Below, one piece after another: positions 7,324-64,000 of a stretch of 64,000 nt of DNA. A program made the translations under genes and the position numbers. The notes beneath the pieces were generated by a model that did not search any database, was not told the origin of the DNA, and saw only the letters and a list, made by a program, of their open reading frames with translations. The stretch's first letter is position 1, and every line of letters starts with the position of its first letter. Origin of the DNA: Mobula hypostoma (taxonomy: Eukaryota). Location: NCBI RefSeq assembly GCF_963921235.1, contig NC_086097.1, forward strand, positions 29,638,001 to 29,702,000, read 5' to 3'.

Positions 7324-7764
7324 CCTACAAACCTGAACACCTCTGGGATGTGGAGGGAATGGGAGCACTCAGAGGGTAAACTACCTGGTCACAGGGAGAA
7401 CCTGCAGACTCCACTCAGAGAGGACTAGAAGTTGAGTTTGAACGCAGGTCTCTGGAGATGTGAGGTAGTAGATCCATCAGCAGCACAACGGCGTCACCAG
7501 GCTTCCAAAGTTCAAAGTAAGATTTATTATCAAGTACTGTATACAGGCATGTACCAGTCACTACCCTGAGATTAATTTTCATACAAGTATTTACAGGAAA
7601 ATAAAGAAATACAACAGAGTTTATGAAAAACTAACAAACCATTGTTTGCATACATCATAGATCCATAGAACTTCTTTTGCCCTCTTCTGTGGCAGTCCTC
7701 CTATAACTGCTAGATTCCAGATCCTGCTCATAGAGTCACTGAGTAAACTAGTATGGATCATCAC

Positions 7765-10316
7765 TCATTTCAAACAGGTGTTAGACGACAGCAAGTGCGA
7801 GGGTATGAACCAGCCACTGACTCTGGAGGAACTGACTGGCTCCATCCATTCCTTTGACTCAAATAAAACTCCCAGAAACAATGCCTTACTGACTGAGTTG
7901 TACTCAGCTCTGTTGGACTGGATGGGCCCAGACCTGCTGGAGGTGTACGATGTGATGCTTCGAGCTGGCATGAGGAAGGCCATCATTACTCTCACCTACA
8001 AGCAGATGGTGGAAAGAGATGACATTAAGAATTGGAGACCCATTTCACTCTTGAATGTGTCCAAGGCCATAGCAATCCGTGTCAAGTCTGCTCTAGGATA
8101 GGTGATCCACCCAGACCAAACCTGTGCTGTATCTGGCAGGAAGATATTTGACAGCCACATGCTGCTGAGGGACACCATCATCTACATGCAGAACATGGGG
8201 TGGATGCCTGCCTGGTCAGCTTGGACCAGGAGAAAACCTTCGCTAGGATATCACACCCATACGTGATGGATGTACTCTCCAAAGTGGGATTTTGTGAGGG
8301 AATTGGGAATTGGATCCAGCTGCTCAACATGTACATCTGTAGTAGAGTCCAAGTCAATGGTTGGAAAACAGGTAACTTTCCCATCAAGTCTGGAGTCAGG
8401 CAGTGTTGCCCATTCTCCCTTGACTTGTTTGTGTGTTGTATAGAACCCTTTGCCGAAGCCATCAGGAAGAACAAGAGCATAAGAGGGGTGAGGCTGCTGA
8501 ACAGTGGAGTAACCCAAGTGAAACCTCCCTGTACATAGGGAGGTCACTGTCTTCTGCTCAGATACGAGTTCAGTTTGCAGATCGATCAGCATCTGCGACC
8601 AGTTTGAATTGACATCAGGGGCCAGGGTTAACCGCACAAAGAGCGAGGCTATGCTTTTTGGCAGCTGACCCGACTGATCCAGAGTCCCCTTCACCACCAA
8701 GTCTGATTACGTGAACGTGCTGGAGGGGCCAAGACATGCAACAAGAATTGGAGGAGTGGACTGGGAAAGTAAAGCAGAAATTGGGACTGGGGGGAGGGTA
8801 CTCCCTGTAAATAACTGGGAAGAACCTGGTCATCAGATGTGAGGTGCTTTCAGCGCTACCGTACTTGGTGCAGGTGTGGCCCATCCTCCACTCCTCCAGT
8901 TTGGGAATCATCCGATTCTTCAGGTTTATCTGGGGATCCAAGATGGAGCAGGTAAGACAGGTCACCATGCACAAGTCCCTTCACAGCAGGGGATATAAAC
9001 ATAGCCAGTGTTGCCTTCATCCTGATGACCGCCTTTGTGTGTGGCTGCATCAGGCTGTGCGTGGAGCCTAAACACGTGCCGAGGTTCTATCTGTCCCCAG
9101 TGTTGGAAAGATTGTGTCTGGCCCCATTGCCGCGCATCGTCCCAGTCAGCTGGACGGTTCTGCACCACCTGCCTTTCGTGTAAAAGCTCGTCTGCACCAA
9201 CGCCTTTGACCACAAGCTGCTGCAGCAGTGTGGTGGTTAGCACAATGATATTACAGCTCACGGTGTCAGAGTTCGAACTTTGATTCCGATGTCTTCTGTA
9301 AGGGGTTCATCCATCTTCCCGGTCGAATGTGCGTGTGTCTCCTCTGGGTGCTCCAGTTCCTTCCTACAGTCCAAAGATGTACCAGTTAGTCAGCACATTG
9401 GTCATTGTAAATTGTCCTGTGACTAGGCCAGGGTTGAATTGGTGGGTGCTGGCTGTGCGGGTTGAAAGTCCAGAAGGGCCTATTCCATCATGTAAAAATA
9501 AATTCTATAAGTCGATCCGACATTGGTCAGCACGGAACATCCTGCAGACACTGCAGCAGAAGGACTCGATGGACACATTGGGGTGGTTTCCTGAGCAGAC
9601 TGTCCAGACCATCTGGCAGAATGCCTCATCGCCAGGCCTCACTAACAGGCACCAAGACCTTGCCTGGCTGGCGGTGAGAGGGGCCCTCCCAGTCAGATCC
9701 TTCCCGCATGCCAGGAGCTTCACTCCCACAGCTCGCTGCCCGCAGGATGACTGTCGAGGGGAAGAGACAGTCGCTCATCTCTTTGCAGACTGCGGGTTTG
9801 TGAGGAGTGTGCGGAGAAAGACGTCACGGTTCATGCTGACCAGAATCTGATCTACGGCTTCACCAGGGACAAGCATTCCGTGTTGTCAGCAGATCATCAG
9901 CTCGGTGAAAGACGCTCTTTGGTCTGCCCGAAACATGTTGGTCTGCCAGCACATCGCGATGTCCGTGGATGAACGCTGCCGACTGGCACATCCCAGGCTG
10001 CAGGAGTTCGTGCTGAGGGATGCACGGAAGCTTGGTGCAGCCCCTGCAGGGGCTCGGTGGGAGTAGGACCACAGTGTAGGGGTCTTCCTCTACCGGAGAG
10101 GGAGGCGCCGGGTTGAGGGAGGAGGTCCCACAATTATTTTTGTAGCAGTATGCCAACCCACAGTGACACATGAGGCCAGCGGTGCCATTGGTGTGTATGA
10201 ATGTAGTAGAACAGTATGGAAAGCACTGGCTACGAATGTAAAGATTGAAAAGACATTGAATGGTTTATTCTTGTAAAGATTTTGTAATGAATAAAGTTCA
10301 TTTAGTTTAAAAAAAA
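7765..10316 (+). mobile_element. Tx1-clade non-LTR retrotransposon, 5'-truncated, decayed ORF2 (RT and C-terminal zinc finger)
   Basis: Frameshifted RT pieces (NWRPISLLN, SLDQEKTF, SGVRQCCPFS..LFVCCIEPF), C-terminal CPQDDCRGEETVAHLFADC, AATAAA at 10290 and A-tail 10309-10316. Confidence 0.9.
9220..9508 (+). mobile_element. SINE nested in the Tx1 element
   Basis: gtggttagcacaatg...gagttcgaac head (A/B-box-like) and A-rich tail interrupt the Tx1 ORF2 homology. Confidence 0.65.
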
Positions 10317-36944: not shown

Positions 36945-37584
36945 GTTACCGAGGACTCCGTGATCTACGGGCTGTTCCCGGGGACGCACACAGAGACAAA
37001 CATGCGGTGCTGCTGGCAGATCATCAATTCGGTGAAAGACGCGCTTTGGTCTGCCCGAAACTTGGTGGTCTGCCAGCACATGGAGATGCCCGTGACTGAA
37101 TACTGCTGACTGGCTCACTCTCGCCTGCAGGAGTACGTGCTGAGGGATGCACTCAAGCTTGGTGCGGCCACCGTGAAGGCCCGGTGGGGAAGGACCACAG
37201 TTTAAGGTTCATCACCCGTGGGGGTCGGAGGGGTCGGGTGGCAGGAGAATAACCCTCATCAGTGGTGTGGACAGATAATCAACATGGTGCCCTAGGAGTG
37301 GGTGGAATTGTTAATTTGGAAGAGGAATTAGAGCCAATACCTGCCTTTATTGTTGATAATTTTATTGTTAATAACTCTTAACTCTTGACCAAGGGTTGAG
37401 AGTAAATGAATGATTTATTGTAAACATCTTTCATTTGTATATGAACAGAGAGTCAACGCATAATTTTATTGTAAATAACTTTATTTATTGAATAAGGACT
37501 CAGAGTCAATGAATGTGTTTTCTTGTATGTATATAAATTTATTTTGTAATAATTCTGAATAAAGTATTTTTGGAGAAAAAAAAA
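36945..37584 (+). mobile_element. Tx1-clade element 3' end (5'-truncated)
   Basis: Clearly homologous to 9850-10090 (tcggtgaaagacgc.ctttggtctgcccgaaac...ctgcaggagt.cgtgctgagggatgcac); AATAAA at 37558, A-tail 37576-37584. Confidence 0.85.
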
Positions 37585-41509: not shown

Positions 41510-41777
41510 CATTTATTTATTGATACACAGTGTGGAATAGGCCCTTTCAGACCTTCGAGCTATGCTGCTCAGCAATCCCCCAATTTAATCCTGGCCTAAT
41601 TACGGGACAATTTGCAATGAGCAGTTAATGTACCAACTGGTATGTTGTTGGAATGTGGGAAGAAGCCCATGTAGTCACAGGGAGAAAGTACAACCTCCTT
41701 ACAGGCAGTGGCAGGAATTGAGTCCGGGTCACTGGTACTGTAAAGCGTTGTACTAACCACTACACTATAGTGCCACT
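41510..41777 (-). mobile_element. V-SINE/HE1-like SINE nested in CR1
   Basis: Homologous to 5495-5752; (aaat)n tail. Confidence 0.7.
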
Positions 41778-49463: not shown

Positions 49464-52400
49464 CTCACTGCCGCCCTCCAGTGTTTCAGTTTGCTCACTG
49501 CCGGCCTCCAGTGTTTCTGTTTGCTCACTGCCGCCCTCCAGTGTTTCAGTTTGCTCACTGCCACCCTCCAGTGTTTCTGTTTGCTCAGCGCCGCCCTCCA
49601 GTGTATCTATTTGCTCACTGCCACTCTCCAGTGTTTCCGTTTGCCCACTGCCACCCTCCAGTGTTTCTGTTTGCTCACTGCCGCCCTGCAGTGTTTCAGT
49701 TTGCTCACTGCTGCCCTCCAGTTTTTCAGTTTGCTCACTGCCGCCCTCCAGTTTTTCAGTTTGCTCACTGCCGCCCTCCAGTGTTTCCGTTTGCTCAGCA
49801 CTGCCCTCCAGTGTTTCCGTTTGCCCACTGCCGCCCTCCAGTGTTTCAGTTTGCTCACTGCCGGCCTCCAGTGTTTCTGTTTGCTCACTGCCGCCCTCCA
49901 GTGTATCTGTTTGCTCACTGCCGCCCTCCAGTGTTTCAGTTTGCTCAGTGTTGCCCTCCAGTGTTTCAGTTTGCTCACTGCCGCCCTCCAGTGTTTCACT
50001 TTGCTCACTGCCGCCCTCCAGTGTTTCAGTTTGCTCAGTGCCACCCTCCAGTGTTTCCGTTTGCTCAGTGCCACCCTCCAGTGTTTCCGTTTGCTCAGTG
50101 CTGCCCTCCAGTGTTTCAGTTTGCTCAGTGTTGCCCTCCAGTGTTTCAGATTGCTCACTGCTGCCCTCCAGTGTTTCTGTTTGCCCACTGCCGCCCTCCA
50201 GTGTTTCAGTTTACCCACTGCCGCCCTCCAGTGATTCAGTTTGCTCACTGCCGCCCTCCAGTGTTTCAGTTTGCCCACTGCCGCCCTCCAGTGTTTCTGT
50301 TTGCCCACTGCCACCCTCCAGTGTTTCAATTTGCTCACTGCCACCCTCCAGTGTTTCGGTTTGCTCACTGCCACCCTCCAGTGTTTCGGTTTGCTCACTG
50401 CCACCCTCCAGTGATTCAGTTTGCCCACTGCCGCCCTCCAGTGTTTCAGTTTGATCACTGCCACCCTCCAGTGTTTCAGTTTGCCCACTGCCGCCCTCCA
50501 GTGTTTCAGTTTGCCCACTGCCGCCCTCCAGTGTTTCAGTTTGCTCACTGCCACCCTCCAGTGTTTCAGTTTGCTCAGTGCTGCCCTCCAGTGTTTCAGT
50601 TTGCTCACTGCCGCCCTCCAGTGTTTCAGTTTGCTCACTGCCACCCTCCAGTGTTTCTGTTTGCTCAGCGCCGCCCTCCAGTGTATCTATTTGCTCACTG
50701 CCACTCTCCAGTGTTTCCGTTTGCCCACTGCCACCCTCCAGTGTTTCTGTTTGCTCACTGCCGCCCTGCAGTGTTTCAGTTTGCTCACTGCTGCCCTCCA
50801 GTTTTTCAGTTTGCTCACTGCCGCCCTCCAGTTTTTCAGTTTGCTCACTGCCGCCCTCCAGTGTTTCTGTTTGCTCAGCACTGCCTTCCAGTGTTTCCGT
50901 TTGCCCACTGCCGCCCTCCAGTGTTTCGGTTTGCTCACTGCCGCCCTCCAGTGTTTCTGTTTGCTCAGTGCCGCCCTCCAGTGTTTCAGTTTGCTCAGTG
51001 CCACCCTCCAGTGTTTCAGTTTGCTCACTGCCGCCCTCCAGTGTTTCAGTTTGCCCACTGCCGCCCTCCAGTGTTTCAGTTTGCTCAGTGCTGCCCTCCA
51101 GTGTTTCTGTTTTCTCAGTGCTGCCCTCCAGTGTTTCTGTTTTCTCAGTGTTGCCCTCCAGTGTTTCAGTTTGCTCAGTGCTGCCCTCCAGTGTTTCAGT
51201 TTGCTCACTGCTGCCCTCTAGTGTTTCGGTTTGCTCACTGCCACCCTCCAGTGTTTCAGTTTGCTCACTGCCGCCCTCCAGTGTTTCTGGTTGCTCACTG
51301 CCGCCCTCCAGTATTTCAGTTTGCTCACTGCCGCCCTCCAGTGTTTCAGTTTGCTCAGTGCCACCCTCCAGTGTTTCAGTTTGCTCACTGCCGCCCTCCA
51401 GTGTTTCTGTTTGCTCACTGCCGCCCTCCAGTGTTTCAGTTTGCTCACTGCCGCCCTCCAGTGTTTCAGTTTGCTCACTGCTGAGCTCCAGTGTTTCAGT
51501 TTGCTCAGTGCCGCCCTCCAGTGTTTCAGTTTGCTCACTTCTGAGCTCCAGTGTTTCTGTTTGCTCACTGCCGCCCTCCAGTGTTTCTGTTTGCTCACTG
51601 CCGCCCCCCAGTGTTTCAGTTTGCTCACTGCCGCCCTCCAGTGTTTCAGTTTGCTCACTGCTGAGCTCCAGTGTTTCAGTTTGCTGTGCCGCCCTCCAGT
51701 GCTTCAGTTTGCTCACTGCCGCCCTCCAGTGTTTCAGTTTGCTCACTTCTGAGCTCCAGTGTTTCTGTTTGCTCACTGCCGCCCTCCAGTGTTTCTGTTT
51801 GCTCACTGCCGCCCTCCAGTGTTTCAGTTTGCTCACTGCCGCCCTCCAGTGTTTCAGTTTGCTCACTGCTGAGCTCCAGTGTTTCAGTTTGCTGTGCCGC
51901 CCTCCAGTGTTTCAGTTTGCTCACTGCCGCCCTCCAGTGTTTCAGTTTGCTCAATGCTGCCCTCCAGTGTTTCAGTTTGCCCACTGCCGCCCTCCAGTGT
52001 TTCAGTTTGCTCAGTGCCGTCCTCCAGTGTTTCAGTTTGCTCACTGCAGAGCTCCAGTGTTTCTGTTTGCTCACTGCTGAGCTCCAGTGTTTCAAATTGC
52101 TCACTGCTGAACTCCAGTGTTTCGGTTTGCTCACTGCCACCCTCCAGTGTTTCAGTTTGCTCACTGCTGAGCTCCAGTGTTTCTGTTTGCTCACTGCCGC
52201 CCTCCAGTGTTTCAGTTTGCTCACTGCCGCCCTCCAGTGTTTCAGTTTGCTCACTTCTGAGCTCCAGTGTTTCTGTTTGCTCACTGCCGCCCTCCAGTGT
52301 TTCTGTTTGCTCACTGCCGCCCTCCAGTGTTTCAGTTTGCTCACTGCCGCCCTCCAGTGTTTCAGTTTGCTCACTGCTGAGCTCCAGTGTTTCAGTTTGC

Positions 52401-54486
52401 TGTGCCGCCCTCCAGTGTTTCAGTTTGCTCACTGCCACCCTCCAGTGTTTCAGTTTGCTCAATGCCGCCCTCCAGTGTTTCAGTTTGCCCACTGCCGCCC
52501 TCCAGTGTTTCAGTTTGCTCAGTGCCGTCCTCCAGTGTTTCAGTTTGCTCACTGCAGAGCTCCAGTGTTTCTGTTTGCTCACTGCTGAGCTCCAGTGTTT
52601 CAGATTGCCCACTGCTGAACTCCAGTGTTTCGGTTTGCTCACTGCCACCCTCCAGTGTTTCAGTTTGCTCACTGCTGAGCTCCAGTGTTTCTGTTTGCTC
52701 ACTGCCGCCCTCCAGTGTTTCAGTTTGCTCAGTGCCGCCCTCCAGTGTTTCAGTTTGCTCAGTGCCGCCCTCCAGTGTTTCAGTTTGCTCACTGCCACCC
52801 TCCAGTGTTTTGGTTTGCTGACTGCCGCCCTCCAGTGTTTCTGTTTGCTCACTGCCGCCCTCCAGTGTTTCAGTTTGCTCACTGCCGCCCTCCAGTGTTT
52901 CAGTTTGCTGACTGCCACCCTCCAGTGTTTCCGTTTGCTCACTGCCGCCCTCCAGTGTTTCAGTTTGCTCACTGCTGCCCTCCAGTGTTTCAGTTTGCTC
53001 ACTGCCGCCCTCCAGTGTTTCAGTTTGCTCACTGCTGAGCTCCAGTGTTTCAGTTTGCTGTGCCGCCCTCCAGTGTTTCAGTTTGCTCACTGCCGCCCTC
53101 CAGTGTTTCAGTTTGCTCAATGCCGCCCTCCAGTGTTTCAGTTTGCCCACTGCCGCCCTCCAGTGTTTCAGTTTGCTCAGTGCCGTCCTCCAGTGTTTCA
53201 GTTTGCTCACTGCAGAGCTCCAGTGTTTCTGTTTGCTCACTGCTGAGCTCCAGTGTTTCAGATTGCTCACTGCTGAATTCCAGTGTTTCGGTTTGCTCAC
53301 TGCCACCCTCCAGTGTTTCAGTTTGCTCACTGCTGAGCTCCAGTGTTTCTGTTTGCTCACTGCCGCCCTCCAGTGTTTCAGTTGGCTCAGTGCCGCCATC
53401 CAGTGTTTCAGTTTGCTCAGTGCCGCCCTCCAGTGTTTCAGTTTGCTCACTGCCACCCTCCAGTGTTTTGGTTTGCTGACTGCCGCCCTCCAGTGTTTCT
53501 GTTTGCTCACTGCCGCCCTCCAGTGTTTCAGTTTGCTCACTGCCGCCCTCCAGTGTTTCAGTTTGCTGACTGCCACCCTCCAGTGTTTCCGTTTGCTCAC
53601 TGCCGCCCTCCAGTGTTTCAGTTTGCTCACTGCTGCCCTCCAGTGTTTCAGTTTGCTCAGTGCCATCCTCCAGTGTTTCAGTTTGCTCACTGCTGAGCTC
53701 CAGTGTTTCAGTTTGCTCACTGCCACCCTCCAGTGTTTCTGTTTGCTCACTGCCGCTCTCCAGTGTTTCAGTTTGCTCACTGCTGAGCGCCAGTGTTTCT
53801 GTTTGCTCACTGCCGCCCTCCAGTGTTTCAGTTTGCTCACTGCAGAGCTCCAGTGTTTCAGTTTGCTCACTGCAGAGCTCCAGTGTTTCTGTTTGCTCAC
53901 TGCTGAGCTCCAGTGTTTCTGTTTGCTCACTGCCACCCTCCAGTGTTTCTGTTTGCTCACTGCTGCCCTCCAGTGTTTTGGTTTGCTCACTGCCGCCCTC
54001 CAGTGTTTCTGTTTGCTCACTGCTGAGCTCCAGTGTTTCAGTTTGCTCACTGCTGAGCTCCAGTGTTTCGGTTTGCTCACTGCCGCCCTCCAGTGTTTCA
54101 GTTTGCTCACTGCTGAGTTCCAGTGTTTCTGTTTGCTCACTGCCGCCCTCCAGTGTATCAGTTTGCTCACTGCCGCCCTCCAGTGTTTCGGTTTGCTCAC
54201 TGCTGCCCTCCAGTGATTCAGTTTGCTCACTGCTGCCCTCCAGTGATTCAGTTTGCTCACTGCCACCCTCCAGTGTTTCAGTTTGCTCACTGCTGCCACC
54301 CAGTGTTTTGGTTTGCTCACTGCCACCCTCCAGTGTTTTGGTTTGCTCACTGCTGCCCTCCAGTGTTTCAGTTTGCTCACTGCCGCCCTCCAGTGTTTCG
54401 GTTTGCTCACTGCCGCCCTCCAGTGTTTCGGTTTGCTCACTGCCGCCCTCCAGTGTTTCAGTTTGCTCGCTGCTGAGCTCCAGTGC
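49464..54486. repeat. 30-bp minisatellite (ttgctcactgccgccctccagtgtttcagt)n, ~165-170 units
   Basis: Directly visible 30-bp periodicity with four 28-bp variant units. Confidence 0.98.
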
Positions 54487-57190: not shown

Positions 57191-57579
57191 AAAAGCCCCA
57201 GACAGGACAGATGGGAAGGCTAGAGTGAGTAAATTTGCTGGGCCAGAAGGTATGACTTGTAGGGCACTCAAGGAGATGGGGTGGTGAGAGTGCCAGGACC
57301 TGCCATAATATTCCAATGTAGGAAGATGAGCTTGAGGACTGGAAAGCGAAAAATATGATACCTTTGATGAAGGAAAGGTGTGTGGACATGGCTAGTAACT
57401 GCAGCTGCCCAAGTGACATGCGGTGTGGGAAATCTTTATGAAATAATCAGATTAAATATTCATAAGCAATAGGGCAGCTCCAAGTTAATGATGGAGAGAT
57501 GGCATAAATCTGTAAAAGGCAGATTGTGTTTGTCTTGTCAGGAGTTATTTGAAGACCTAAACTAGGAGGCTCATGAGGT

Positions 57580-60485
57580 GACACTGGGAGTGTGTTATGG
57601 GACAGTGTGGAGGGAGCTTCACTCTGTGTCTGACCCCGGAAGTGTGTGATAGGAAGGTGTAGAGGGAGTTTCACTCTGTGTCTGACCCTGAGAGTGTGTG
57701 ATGGGACAATGTGGAGGGAGCTTCACTCTGTGTCTGACCCCAGGAGTATGCGATGGGACAGTGTGGAGGGAGCTTCACTCTGTGTCTGACCCCAAGAGTG
57801 TGTGATGGGACAGTGTGGAGGGAGCTTCACTCTGAGTCTGACCCCGGGAGTGTGTGATGGGACAGTGTGGAGGGAGCTTCACTCTGTGTCTGACCCCGGG
57901 AGTGTGTGATGGGACAATGTGGAGGGAGCTTCACTCTGTGTCTGACCCCGGGAGTGTGTGATGGGACAGTGTGGAGGGAGCTTCACTCTGTGTCTGACCC
58001 CAAGAGTGTGTGATGGGACAGTGTGGAGGGAGCTTCACTCTGAGTCTGACCCCGGGAGTGTGTGATGGGACAGTGTGGAGGGAGCTTCACTCTGTGTCTG
58101 ACCCCGGGAGTGTGTGATGGGATAATGTGGAGGGAGCTTCACTCTGTGTCTGACCCCGGGAGTGTGTGATGGGACAGTGTGGAGGGAGCTTCACTCTGAG
58201 TCTGACCCCGGGAGTGTGTGATGGGACAGTGTGGAGGGAGCTTCACTCTGTGTCTGACCCCGGGAGTGTGTGATGGGATAATGTGGAGGGAGCTTCACTC
58301 TGTGTCTGACCCCGGGAGTGTGTGATGGGACAGTGTGGAGGGAGCTTCACTCTGTATCTGATCCCAGGAGTGTGTGATAGGAAGGTGTAAAGGGAGTTTC
58401 ACTCTGTGTCTGACACTGAGAGTGTGTTATGGGACAGTGTGGAGGGTGCTTCACTCTGTGTCTGACCCCAGGAGTGTGTGATGGGACAGTGTGGAGGGAG
58501 CTTCACTCTGTGTCTGACCCCAGGAGTGTGTGATGGGACAGTGTGGAGGGAGCTTCACTCTGTGTCTGACCCCGGGAGTGTGTGATGGGACAGTGCGGAG
58601 GGAGCTTCATTCTGTATCTGACCTCAGGAGTGTGTTATGAGACAGTGTGGAGGGAGCTTCACTCTGTGTCTGACCCCAAGAGTGTGTGATGGGACAGTGT
58701 GGAGGGAGCTTCACTCTGTGTCTGACCCCAGGAGTGTGTGATAGGACAGTGTGGAGGGAGCTTCACTCTGTGTCTGACCCCAGGAGTGTGTGATAGGACA
58801 GTGTGGAGGGAGCTTCACTCTGTGTCTGACCCTGAGAGTACAATGGGACAGTGTGGAGGGAGCTTCATTCTGTATCTGACCTCAGGAGTGTGTTATGAGA
58901 CAGTGTGGAGGGAGCTTCACTCTGTGTCTGACCCCGGGAGTGTGTGATGGGACAGTGTGGAGGGAGCTTCACTCTGTGTCTGACCCTGAGAGTGTGTGAT
59001 AGGAAGGTGTAAAGGGAGTTTCACTCTGTGTCTGACCCTGAGAGTGTGTGATGGGACAGTGTGGAGGGAACTTCACTCTGTGTCTGACCCCGGGAGTGTG
59101 TGATGGGACAGTGTGGAGGGTGCTTCACTCTGTGTCTGACCCCGGGAGTGTGTGATGGGACAGTGTGGAGGGAGCTTCACTCTGTGTCTGACCCCGGGAG
59201 TGTGTGATGGGACAGTGTGGAGGGAGCTTCACTCTGTGTCTGACCCCAGGAGTGTGTGATGGGACAGTGTGGAGGGAGCTTCACTCTGTGTCTGACCCCA
59301 GGAGTGTGTGATAGGACAGTGTGGAGGGAGCTTCACTCTGTGTCTGACCCCAGTGTGTGTGACGGAATGGTGTTGAGGTAGTTTCACTCTGTGTCTGATC
59401 CCAGGAGTGTGTGATAGGACAGTGTGGAGGGAGCTTCACTCTGTGTCTGACCCTGAGAGTGTGTGATGGGACAGTGTGGAGGGAGTTTCACTCTGTGTCT
59501 GACCCCGGAGTGTGTGATGGGACAGTGCGGAGGGAGCTTCACTCTGTGTCTGACCCCGGGAGTGTGTGATGGGACAGTGTGGAGGGAGCTTCACTCTGTG
59601 TCTGACCCTGAGAGTGTGTGATGGGACAGTGTGGAGGGAGTTTCACTCTGTGTCTGACCCCGGAGTGTGTGATGGGACAGTGCGGAGGGAGCTTCACTCT
59701 GTGTCTGACCCCGGGAGTGTGTGATGGGACAGTGTGGAGGGAGCTTCACTCTGTGTCTGACCCCAGTGTGTGATAGGAAGGTGTAGAAGGAGTTTCACTC
59801 TGTGTCTGACCCCGGGAGTGTGTGATGGGACAGTGTGGAGGGAGCTTCATTCTGTGACTGACCCTGAGAGTGTGTGATGGGACAGTGTGGAGGGAGCTTC
59901 ACTCTGTGTCTGACCCCGGGAGTGTGTGACGGAATGGTGTTGAGGTAGTTTCATTCTGTGTCTGACCCCAGTGTGTGTGACGGAATGGTGTTGAGGTAGT
60001 TTCATTCTGTGTCTGACCCCAGTGTGTGTGATGGAATGGTGTTGAGGTAGTTTCATTCTGTGTCTGACCTCAGGAGTGTGTGATGGGACAGTGTGGAGGG
60101 AGCTTCATTCTGTGACTGACCCTGAGAGTGTGTGATGGGACAGTGTGGAGGGAGCTTCACTCTGTGTCTGACCCCGGGAGTGTGTGACGGAATGGTGTTG
60201 AGGTAGTTTCATTCTGTGTCTGACCCCAGTGTGTGTGACGGAATGGTGTTGAGGTAGTTTCATTCTGTGTCTGACCCCAGTGTGTGTGATGGAATGGTGT
60301 TGAGGTAGTTTCATTCTGTGTCTGACCTCAGGAGTGTGTGATGGGACAGTGTGGAGGGAGCTTCATTCTGTGACTGACCCCGGGAGTGTGTGATGGGACA
60401 GTGTGGAGGGAGCTTCATTCTGTGACTGACCCTGAGAGTGTGTGATGGGACAGTGTGGAGGGAGCTTCACTCTGTGTCTGACCCC
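57580..60485. repeat. 52/51-bp satellite (gggagtgtgtgatgggacagtgtggagggagcttcactctgtgtctgacccc)n, left arm, ~56 units
   Basis: Directly visible periodicity. Confidence 0.98.
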
Positions 60486-60494
60486 TTTTTTTTT

Positions 60495-60675
60495 GGCTCA
60501 TGTAGACCCCGCCCTGCCACTCCAGGAGCCAAGCAGACTCGTCCCCAGGGATGGTATGGGTTTCCTGCAGGAAACTCACCGTATACCGCCCATCCCTGAG
60601 GACTGAGAGATTGTTATGCCTGCGAAGTGGACCCCTGCTGCCGTTTACATTGAGACTAGCTATGGTAAGCTTCAT
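60495..60675 (-). pseudogene. Truncated ORF2: N-terminus of an APE-type endonuclease
   Basis: MKLTIASLNVNG...SFLQETH are the first two conserved APE motifs; the sequence runs into poly(A) after ...GGVYMS. Confidence 0.9.
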
Positions 60676-60687
60676 GGCGGGAGCACA

Positions 60688-62742
60688 CTAGGTCTCAGCA
60701 GCTACGCCCATTTCGGTGAGAGCGGAGGCGCCTTCCACCACACTGTCCGGAAAGAAAGCAAGGATACCTTTTGCTTTCCGGGCTCGAGCGGTACCAGCAA
60801 CACCCTGTGACCCACCATCCCCCGTAGGAGCGAGGCTGCTTCTCCCTCTGATGTCCCTTACTAGGTCATCCAGGAAAGATTTTAGTTGCCGTCTGTCGTT
60901 CCCCACCACCGCATTCCTCTTTCCCTTTCCCTTTCGTCTGAGGATGACTCGCAGGGACCTCACCAGCCTCGGCATGCTGGGCCAGCGAAGCGAGGCTAGC
61001 TGAGGCCGGTGCTTGGCACCCTCAGAGGTGAGAATGAAATGCTTAATTTCCTCTACAGGTATCAAAGGGGATTTCTCAGGAGGGGTGAGGATGTCCATTG
61101 TTTCACTATCGAAAGAGTCCCCCTCCAACCCGTCACTGCAGACAGAATCCCCATCGGCCTCCCCGCATGTTCCAATAGATGGCTGCGCCTGCGACCCACA
61201 CCGCGCAGCGGGCACCTCGCTCTTACCTGCCCGCTCCACCGTCGCATCAGCCTCATCCACATTTGCGACAGTGGAGAGACAATCCCCAGGGACTCCCTGC
61301 AAGTCATTTATTGCTGGGGTCGATGTGCACAGAATATCGTCCTCCCTAGGGGGCAGGCATAGAGGGGAACCCGGCACCTTTGGTCCAAGGGATTCATAAG
61401 CCGCCTGGTGCTGAGAATGAGAGAGCTTTGCCTCGTCTCCTCTTACACTATTCGGTACACTGGCCTCCAGAGAGGCGCTGACTTGTAGGTCCTGGGTGGA
61501 GGCTTCCAGGGCTGCCTCATTTGTGCAAACAGGCCTATCACAAGCTTTTTGCACAACCACACCATCTACCCCAGGACTGGTGGCTACATCTGAGGACTCA
61601 GGTTTAGAACCAACCCCTACCCGGATTCCCACCCCTTCCTGGGACTCCCCCGCATCTACATCCCCTGCCCTCTTGCGGGAACGTTCCCTTCTCCTCTTCA
61701 CGCTGGAGGAGCACACAGGTGCAGGCTTCACCGATGGGGCGGCGCCTTCTGTTTCCATCGCCCCGTCTGCTTGCGCACCTCCCCGAGCCCCACGCTCCAC
61801 TTCAGACGAAATGGGTGTGAGCTCTGCGGCCTCAAAGGCCCGCTTCTTACTATGTTTGGATTTCCCCTTTGCCTTCTTACTCCGCACAGACTCCACCCCG
61901 TCCCCCACCTGAACTACAGGGAGAGGAGCAGGGACCGACCCAACCGTAGAAGTAGGGACAGGGGTAGGGGTAGGGGCAGGGTGAGGGGCTGGGGCAGGAT
62001 CACGGGCGGGGGCAGGGTCAGATGCAGGTGCAGGCGCACGCGCAGGAGTAGGATCAGGGGCAGAGGTAGCTGCGGCACTGGTGCCCGAAGTGGGCTCCCT
62101 CGGGTTCCGGGCGGCAGGACAGTCCCTCCGAAAGTGCCCCACCTCCCTGCACGCATGGCACCGTGGGCGCTCGGAGCTCCAGTACACCTGATAATCTACT
62201 CCCTCGTGCCGGACAGTAAAGCGGCCCTCAACATCGTCCTCCCTTTCCAGCTGCATGAAAACCTGACGCCGGAAAGAGATTACGGTGCGGAGGGTGCGTC
62301 TCTTAAATTTGTGTCGGATGGCAGTAATCTCCGACCTTACTTGCCCTAAACGGGCCAGTGGGGGAAGCAAGTCCTCATTTGGAATGAAAGGCTTAACATG
62401 CCCAAGCACGATACGTTGCGTGGGGGCCGTCACCAGCTCCATAGGTAAAAAGATGTTGTCCACCGTGACTCCCCTGCTTAGGGCCCGGTGCACTAGCTCT
62501 TCATTCACCAGATAGAACACCGCCTTTCCGAACTCCTTCTCGGTGGCCAGAATACCACCTTTCCCCACAAGGTCCTCCATTGCCTCCGTACACTTTTCTA
62601 GTGTCATTCCAGGGCGCAAAATACATTGCACCCCACGTTCCACCTTCACCGACCGAAACAGGGCGTTGTCCGAGGCCGGGGAGGCAGCCGCCCTTGCGTA
62701 ACTCCCCGAAGGCCCGCGACTCCCTGGAGACCGGTCCGGCAT
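60688..62742 (-). CDS. Tx1-type ORF1 (gag-like nucleic-acid-binding protein, 684 aa) with CCHC zinc knuckle
   Basis: ATG-to-stop ORF; SYARAA N-terminal motif; CHACREVGHFRRDC = CX2CX4HX4C; Pro/Ala-rich linker; ORF2 starts 12 nt after its stop. Confidence 0.9.
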   Translation of the reverse strand: MPDRSPGSRGPSGSYARAAASPASDNALFRSVKVERGVQCILRPGMTLEKCTEAMEDLVGKGGILATEKEFGKAVFYLVNEELVHRALSRGVTVDNIFLPMELVTAPTQRIVLGHVKPFIPNEDLLPPLARLGQVRSEITAIRHKFKRRTLRTVISFRRQVFMQLEREDDVEGRFTVRHEGVDYQVYWSSERPRCHACREVGHFRRDCPAARNPREPTSGTSAAATSAPDPTPARAPAPASDPAPARDPAPAPHPAPTPTPVPTSTVGSVPAPLPVVQVGDGVESVRSKKAKGKSKHSKKRAFEAAELTPISSEVERGARGGAQADGAMETEGAAPSVKPAPVCSSSVKRRRERSRKRAGDVDAGESQEGVGIRVGVGSKPESSDVATSPGVDGVVVQKACDRPVCTNEAALEASTQDLQVSASLEASVPNSVRGDEAKLSHSQHQAAYESLGPKVPGSPLCLPPREDDILCTSTPAINDLQGVPGDCLSTVANVDEADATVERAGKSEVPAARCGSQAQPSIGTCGEADGDSVCSDGLEGDSFDSETMDILTPPEKSPLIPVEEIKHFILTSEGAKHRPQLASLRWPSMPRLVRSLRVILRRKGKGKRNAVVGNDRRQLKSFLDDLVRDIRGRSSLAPTGDGGSQGVAGTARARKAKGILAFFPDSVVEGASALTEMGVAAET

Positions 62743-63269
62743 GCTGGCGCTCTTTCCAGTCCGAGAATCCTACAGCGCTGTCGATTAGAAGTCCTGGAGC
62801 GAAACGAGTAACTGGCCGGGAAAGTTTGCAGTCGACAGTTCCTCGCTGGCTCGGCGCCAGTAAAGGCTCCGTCGGACTTGCAGAGACCCAGGCCGGGAGA
62901 GGCCGAAACGTCCTTCCAGATGCTCCGGCACCGGCACCGGCACCGACACCGGACGAAAAATCAGGAAAACAATGGAGGAGGAACTTTGCCCCGATGTCAA
63001 TGGGGGGAAAACGACGGCGTTTGCCTCCGGTTTTGGAGCGAACCGGCTTACTGGCGAGTTGCCAGCGGCCGCAGCTGGGAGCTACGCAGTAAGCAGCCGC
63101 CAACAAACCCAGTCCAAACCGGCAGCAAAAACTCCACACCGAGCTTCCACGCCAACGCCGTCACTCACTCAGTTGTCCAAGAGACTTTTAGAGCCACCTC
63201 CAAAGTATTCCACGAACTTTATCCAGTAGTTTTCCTTCGATTTCTCCCAGCTCAGTCAGCACAGCTCCT

Positions 63270-64000
63270 CTCTGTGTCTGACCCCGGGAGTGTGTGACGG
63301 AATGGTGTTGAGGTAGTTTCATTCTGTATCTGACCTCAGGAGTGTGTGATGGGACAGTGTGGAGGGAGTTTCACTCTGTGTCTGACCCCGGTGTGTGTGA
63401 CGGAATGGTGTTGAGGTAGTTTCATTCTGTGACTGAACCCAGTGTGTGTGATGGAATGGTGTGGAGGTAGTTTCATTCTGTGACTGAACCCCAGTGTGTG
63501 TGATGGGACAGTGTGGAGGTAGTTTCATTCTGTGACTGAACCCCAGTGTGTGTGATGGGACAGTGTGGAGGGAGCTTCACTCTGTGTCTGACCCCAGTGT
63601 GTGTGATGGAATGGTGTTGAGGTAGTTTCACTCTGTGTCTGACCCCAGTGTGTGTGATGGAATGGTGTTGAGGTAGTTTCACTCTGTGTCTGACCCCAGT
63701 GTGTGTGATGGGACAGTGTGGAGGGAGCTTCACTCTGTGTCTGACCCCAGTGTGTGTGATGGAATGGTGTTGAGGTAGTTTCACTCTGTGTCTGACCCCA
63801 GTGTGTGTGATGGAATGGTGTTCAGGTAGTTTCACTCTGTGTCTGACCCCAGTGTGTGTGACGGAATGGTGTTGAGGTAGTTTCACTCTGTGTCTGACCC
63901 CAGTGTGTGTGATGGGACAGTGTGGAGGTAGTTTCACTCTGTGTCTGACCCCAGTGTGTGTGACGGAATGGTGTTGAGGTAGTTTCACTCTGTGTCTGAC
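63270..64000. repeat. 51/52-bp satellite, right arm (runs off the window)
   Basis: Same unit as the left arm, enriched in the 51-bp ggaatggtgttgaggtagttt variant. Confidence 0.98.

Follow-up and report, generated by a model that had tools for sequence, protein, structure and literature searches.

A LINE copy of apparent Tx1 type, 2784 bp long, lies on the minus strand from 63269 to 60486 of the Mobula hypostoma window (the whole stretch of 64,000 nucleotides that was analysed), inside a 52-bp satellite. Its truncation is real: the front half of the copy survives while the copying enzyme is gone, the reverse of usual LINE damage, and the copy cannot move by itself. In our view it most likely arose by one isolated accident belonging to a known class, and it resembles accidents already described for human LINE-1. 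It was probably a one-off insertion whose template ended at nucleotide 181-182 of ORF2, the A-run being either a tail added without a signal or the start of a jump from the true tail. The preliminary description of this locus gave coordinates for the junction only; the full span of the copy is 60486-63269 (Table 1).

Table 1 Features of the truncated LINE copy and its satellite flanks (positions in the window)
Feature	Positions	Strand	Remarks
3' target-site duplication copy, 16 bp	60470..60485		exact match to 63270-63285
5' target-site duplication copy, 16 bp	63270..63285		exact match to 60470-60485
A9 tail	60486..60494	minus	T9 on plus strand; templated: at most the first A (60494)
ORF2 stub, 181 nt / 60 codons, putative AP-type endonuclease start	60495..60675	minus	ATG at 60675; ends ATGAGCC
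Last 16 nt of the stub, opening GGGGTC as the 16-nt duplication does	60495..60510	minus	possible internal target mimic, post hoc
ORF1-ORF2 spacer, 12 nt	60676..60687	minus	
Intact ORF1, 684 aa, CCHC zinc knuckle at residues 194-209	60688..62742	minus	internal stops: 0
5' UTR, 527 nt, carrying the family's 5' end	62743..63269	minus	record 8 of run X1
52-bp satellite, 56 units, element's 3' side	57579..60485		
Same 52-bp satellite, 14 units up to the window end, element's 5' side	63270..64000		

Because the copy carries no reverse transcriptase, its assignment to the Tx1 type of the L1 clade is judged from the remaining parts. These suggest Tx1 by an AP-type endonuclease, a CCHC-bearing ORF1 unlike the vertebrate L1 ORF1 domain, and target-specific insertion with a duplication. 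ORF1 matches zf-CCHC with E=0.00018, above the cut-off, zf-CCHC_2 being its only other family match, and its look-alikes in the Atlas are CCHC and ZCCHC3-type RNA-binding clusters (0.91-0.94), which we take as a lead. ORF1s with CCHC knuckle or RRM-type domains are tied to Tx1 in PMC5203782. Among Mobula protein models, ORF1 is 98% identical to P0004 (M. hypostoma) and 94% identical to P0003 (M. birostris). The ORF2 stub matches PF03372 below the cut-off (E=0.0072), and it shares 93% identity over 28 aa with the sibling protein P0002, whose sequence goes on to form a complete endonuclease (PF03372, E=9.6e-15; best solved match L1 ORF2p, E=1e-16). Relatives that are 34-40% identical over the endonuclease carry RVT_1 in four of four cases and zf-RVT, below the cut-off, in three of four. 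The target-specific Tx1 elements Tx1L, Keno, Kibi, Koshi and the crocodilian Tx1-Mar likewise have a CCHC ORF1 and an AP-type endonuclease (PMC4494074, PMC1950540). They also use a fixed site in a multicopy target, with satellites among the targets (PMC4494074); the ray copy differs in that its target is a 52-bp ray satellite and in having ORF1 only, a form not encountered in the texts consulted on these elements.

At the 3' junction, ORF2 reads through ATGAGCC into nine A's and from there into the target-site duplication, just as the preliminary description had it. The 52-bp satellite starts directly after the A's, so that neither a reverse transcriptase nor a 3' UTR is present. The reported lack of AATAAA at the A-run holds as well: the sole AATAAA is at 61312, 817 nt upstream, and none of 13 kinds of poly(A)-type hexamer tested occurs near the cut, the nearest variant lying at 60886. 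The surroundings of the cut are G-rich; the dinucleotide at the cut is CA, where poly(A) cleavage usually takes place. Folding of the last 206 nt of the RNA gave z = -1.36, with 20 of 200 shuffles as good, which argues against a structured 3' end. None of the contig matches listed bridges the A9 junction, contigs being apt to drop rare forms, and the junction is therefore taken from the assembly.

Two other Tx1 copies in the window had been set against this one as possessing normal 3' ends. Both do have a signal and a tail (AATAAA at 10290 and 37558; A8 at 10309-10316 and A9 at 37576-37584), but their kinship with the family of the 60486-63269 copy is not established, which makes the comparison a weak one. 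They are old and 80% identical to each other over 224 nt, and the segment 7754-8550 is just 30-40% like longer relatives. No exact duplication of at least 7 nt was found for either copy in the ranges searched. The first of them, 7754-10316, is an old 5'-truncated Tx1-type copy with ORF2 interrupted at about 9220-9510 by an insert that resembles 41515-41662 (73%) and is probably another repeat.

Siblings were compared by matching contigs of four of the 23 listed public runs against 60440-63310. Runs X1 and X2 come from one sample, perhaps the window's own, X9 from another organism, and X8 is RNA by guess. Record 1 of X1 matches 60494-61231 and continues 246 nt into ORF2, record 9 of X2 matches 60494-60682 and continues 2465 nt into ORF2, and six X9 contigs diverge at 60494 and read on in ORF2 without an A-run. 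Past the cut, P0002 reads His-Leu-Ser, in agreement with the X9 continuation. Siblings sharing the 5' junction are >99% alike and continue ORF2 without an A-run. The alignment to a longer sibling that had been proposed thus finds no templated A-run, with at most one of the nine A's accounted for by template.

These siblings decide against internal priming, one of the routes previously offered. That route requires a templated A-rich stretch pairing with a T-rich primer (PMC4859970). By the geometry of target-primed reverse transcription (TPRT), the primer here would be the plus strand of the 3' duplication copy, which ends CCCC and could not pair with A; together with the siblings' lack of an A-run, this excludes internal priming. 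Internally primed copies and tailless retropseudogenes are likewise 3'-truncated with a duplication, but in them the sequence stops at a stretch that is A-rich in the template or matches the target, and no tail is added, whereas eight or nine untemplated A's are found here (PMC5322556, PMC4859970). Splicing at the cut was rejected because the sibling has no GT there. Primer pairing at the GGGGTC stretch was rejected too, since it would place a tailless junction at 60511, against the 60495 observed.

The 5' end is intact, as had been claimed. Record 8 of X1 (depth 21.8) spans 63061-63297 with one difference and runs through the 5' junction into the satellite, indicating that the 5' end is that of the family and that its main form is flanked in this way too. 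The copy is young: against four X1 contigs it shows seven differing letters over 2742 nt, plus a gap of 6 nt. Its 5' UTR departs from the predominant type in X1, X2 and X8 by 11 listed differences in 62769-62808 and a further 6 nt at 62925, and at several of these places it agrees with the X9 organism. The differing 40-nt stretch suggests that the source of the copy was a minor subtype, and we read the 5' UTR as a minor, older or recombined type.

The 16-mer of the duplication is present in every satellite unit, so that the duplication by itself proves little. The satellite variants are more telling. The unit left of the insertion recurs two more times in the left array, both recurrences lead into a unit identical over its first 40 nt to the one right of the insertion, and only two of 54 unit junctions in that array lead into such a unit. 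Unit order is thus kept across the element, which makes the flanks the two parts of a single original site, barring the loss of entire higher-order periods. These observations support a true 16-bp target-site duplication. The passage of record 8 of X1 into this satellite at the 5' junction agrees with target-specific insertion, X1 perhaps being the window's own sample.

This coherent order also speaks against an assembly error in which a full-length copy was collapsed within the satellite. Such an error might be suspected, given the tandem array around the site and the absence of the A9 junction from the contigs listed. The window is nevertheless free of N, arrays of 56 and 168 units are resolved, and a tail joined to unique ORF2 sequence is not what a collapse should leave behind; we regard such an error as very unlikely. 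The satellite itself has a higher-order structure in which four to five unit variants at a time recur as a block (57579-60485 and 63270-64000), and a second unit type becomes common near and beyond the insertion. At 63263-63269, the first seven bases of the element match five of the seven target bases replaced; the 5' junction thus comes close to restoring the target, which could favour stacked insertions.

In the one-off insertion that we favour, a complete ORF2 protein would have nicked the satellite at the position normally used by the family, with the CCCC end serving as primer. The nine A's would have been copied first, followed by the element RNA from ORF2 nucleotide 181-182 to its 5' end. 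Two sources of the tail may be considered. An RNA that had been cut or had ended prematurely may have received the A's with no canonical signal and then been mobilised in trans; alternatively, the true tail may have been copied before a jump over about 4 kb, for which no trans mobilisation would be needed. The two routes cannot be told apart here. The preliminary description had listed neither the jump from the true tail nor the second-hit deletion discussed below.

Several observations support a one-off insertion: it is single and clean, it carries a duplication, the satellite order is unbroken, and A9 is as short as the tails of the other two Tx1 copies (A8, A9). Untemplated addition of T by the R2 reverse transcriptase was reportedly observed by Luan and Eickbush in 1995. 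For L1 and SVA, a class of 3'-truncated insertions that arise by premature polyadenylation, canonical or not, has been described (PMC4859970, citing Perepelitsa-Belancio and Deininger 2003), truncated ORF1-bearing RNAs could be mobilised according to the same source, and template jumping has been demonstrated for the R2 reverse transcriptase (PMC11194090). Weighing against the one-off reading are the G-rich, hexamer-free context of the cut and a human genome survey with no convincing tailed, truncated 5S or U2 retrocopy (PMC5322556). A prematurely ended, tailed transcript, already suggested in the preliminary description, remains the leading idea, but the poly(A) signal expected near the cut is absent: of the marks of premature polyadenylation, the copy has the untemplated internal tail and lacks the upstream hexamer. 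As non-canonical sites are allowed (PMC4859970), the missing hexamer lowers the case for premature polyadenylation and does not exclude it.

The closest parallels are thus the 3'-truncated L1 and SVA insertions (Hancks and Kazazian 2016, PMC4859970), in which the 5' part is likewise kept and the 3' part lost, with an A-tail and a duplication. The ray copy differs from them in being apparently Tx1-type and site-specific and in lacking a poly(A) hexamer, and also in its tail, which cannot pair with the target because the primer ends CCCC.

The one-off insertion leaves as coincidence an in-register likeness between the target and the end of the stub. An alternative that we think unlikely takes up this likeness: a tail-only second hit would have deleted the 3' half of a resident copy. 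The resident would have been full-length, a family ORF2 protein would have nicked the regenerated target at the 3' duplication and copied a few A's, and resolution at a target-like ORF2 site, 16 nt behind GGGGTC, would have deleted about 4 kb. Both duplications would then derive from the first insertion. The last 16 nt of the stub do begin with the target's first six bases in exact register, GGGGTC occurs twice in 2775 nt of sense strand (chance 0.0014 for two registers), and in five gapped scorings the site comes first or joint first among 2760 sense positions. This likeness was, however, spotted post hoc, and a looser criterion gives p = 0.04. The ungapped match is 8 of 16, equalled at 109 of the 2760 sense positions, 7-11 antisense positions reach as high in the gapped scoring, and GGGGTC is fixed by the protein, since it encodes an endonuclease Gly-Val.

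Precedents for such a second hit exist. Tail-only L1 insertions with deletions of 2-13.4 kb make up three of 124 listed human disease insertions (PMC4859970), the Tx1L endonuclease nicks almost exclusively at its own target (PMC1950540), and tandem insertions at one target have been described for the Tx1-mobilised SINEU-3 (PMC4494074). In the tail-only cases at COL4A6, AGA and BRCA2 the A-run likewise joins two distant points; they differ in their 35-70-nt tails, which counts against a second hit here, and in having no duplication and deleting host DNA rather than the element's own body (PMC4859970). Moreover, the kept satellite order leaves a second hit little room, namely this unit or an equivalent period, and our low estimate reflects the need for two rare events at so small a target. 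The fuller proposal, that a site-specific LINE carries a target mimic in ORF2 at which its own enzyme cut a resident copy, leaving a tailed ORF1-only half with both duplications intact, we hold to be improbable. If true, elements could become HAL1-like at the DNA level through damage by their own enzyme, and the second-strand cut would be set by a sequence 16 nt from the first, across kilobases. A second hit would also provide a natural record of second-strand cutting, which PMC4859970 describes as still undefined for L1. Otherwise the in-register GGGGTC likeness is one unexplained coincidence.

The deletion could also have been an ordinary later event, joining ORF2 nucleotide 181 to the old tail without element enzymes. 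A single A is compatible with either side of the junction, and A9 is a normal tail length here. The right break, however, would have to hit about nine bases of a 6-kb element, the microhomology is just 1 nt, and microhomology joining at the shared GGGGTC is rejected because it would have lost the A-run and the last 16 nt, both of which are still present. We rate such a deletion as very improbable.

A further reading places the copy in a subfamily of non-autonomous elements with ORF1 only, the Tx1 equivalent of HAL1 (half-L1), and takes the junction as their fixed 3' end. Raised in the preliminary description, it is so far unsupported, and we consider it quite unlikely. The anatomy is that of HAL1, with ORF1 only, poly(A) and a duplication (PMC5322556), ORF1 and the 5' UTR are intact, and the 5' UTR is from a minor subtype. 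On the other hand, the main contig path of X1 and X2 crosses 60494 unbroken into ORF2, and depth is no lower there: 25.3 past the cut compared with 25.0 in ORF1 for X1, and 37.2 compared with 20-27 for X2, contig depth being no copy number. The copy also retains neither a 3' end of its own nor a poly(A) signal, so that its transcripts should run into the satellite and daughters ending at this junction would be unexpected. No second copy of the junction was seen among the contig matches listed for the four runs, a weak search given that contigs drop rare forms. A weak search among 5.8 billion proteins found none of the read-through form, with one candidate and none scored. In metagenomes, all nine matches to the junction pattern were unrelated to the window or its proteins, with no viral matches, and none of 150 pattern matches to ORF1 in metagenome contigs was confirmed.

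HAL1 itself (Bao and Jurka 2010) likewise has ORF1 only, poly(A) and a duplication and, like the ray copy, depends on a full ORF2; it forms multi-copy families of internal-deletion derivatives, with about 2,100 human copies (PMC5322556, PMC5753468, PMC4494074). In the ray, one copy was seen and no 3' UTR is kept. The ray copy therefore works like a 3'-truncated L1 insertion and resembles a HAL1 founder in its anatomy; we do not class it as HAL1, and without a poly(A) signal it would be a poor founder of a family. Titles and abstract openings, mostly of non-subscription papers and outside Repbase, named neither an ORF1-only Tx1 nor a Tx1 targeting a ray satellite.

As a one-off insertion, the copy indicates that a Tx1 family can leave a tailed copy without a 3' UTR, a poly(A) signal or pairing between tail and target. 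This bears on whether Tx1 RNA recognition is strict or loose, a question framed in PMC3747384. One copy cannot settle that question or that of the second-strand cut.

Several minor observations concern ORF1 and the wider window. An imperfect 6-bp repeat at 61954-62063 encodes the Pro/Ala-rich linker of ORF1, a linker whose length differs by two codons in P0003 and P0004. A strong splice donor (CAG/GTAAGA) lies on the minus strand at 61221-61229 within ORF1. The first ~506 aa of the NCBI Mobula hypostoma lipeb isoforms X1/X2 (P0006, P0004; not to be confused with the runs) are 98% identical to ORF1, and both models change to lipase sequence near the position of this donor; another family copy thus seems to be spliced into lipeb, at least in the model. 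Outside the element, 49464-54485 holds a 30-bp tandem array of 168 units that is very T-rich on the plus strand and contains long stop-free frames on both strands.
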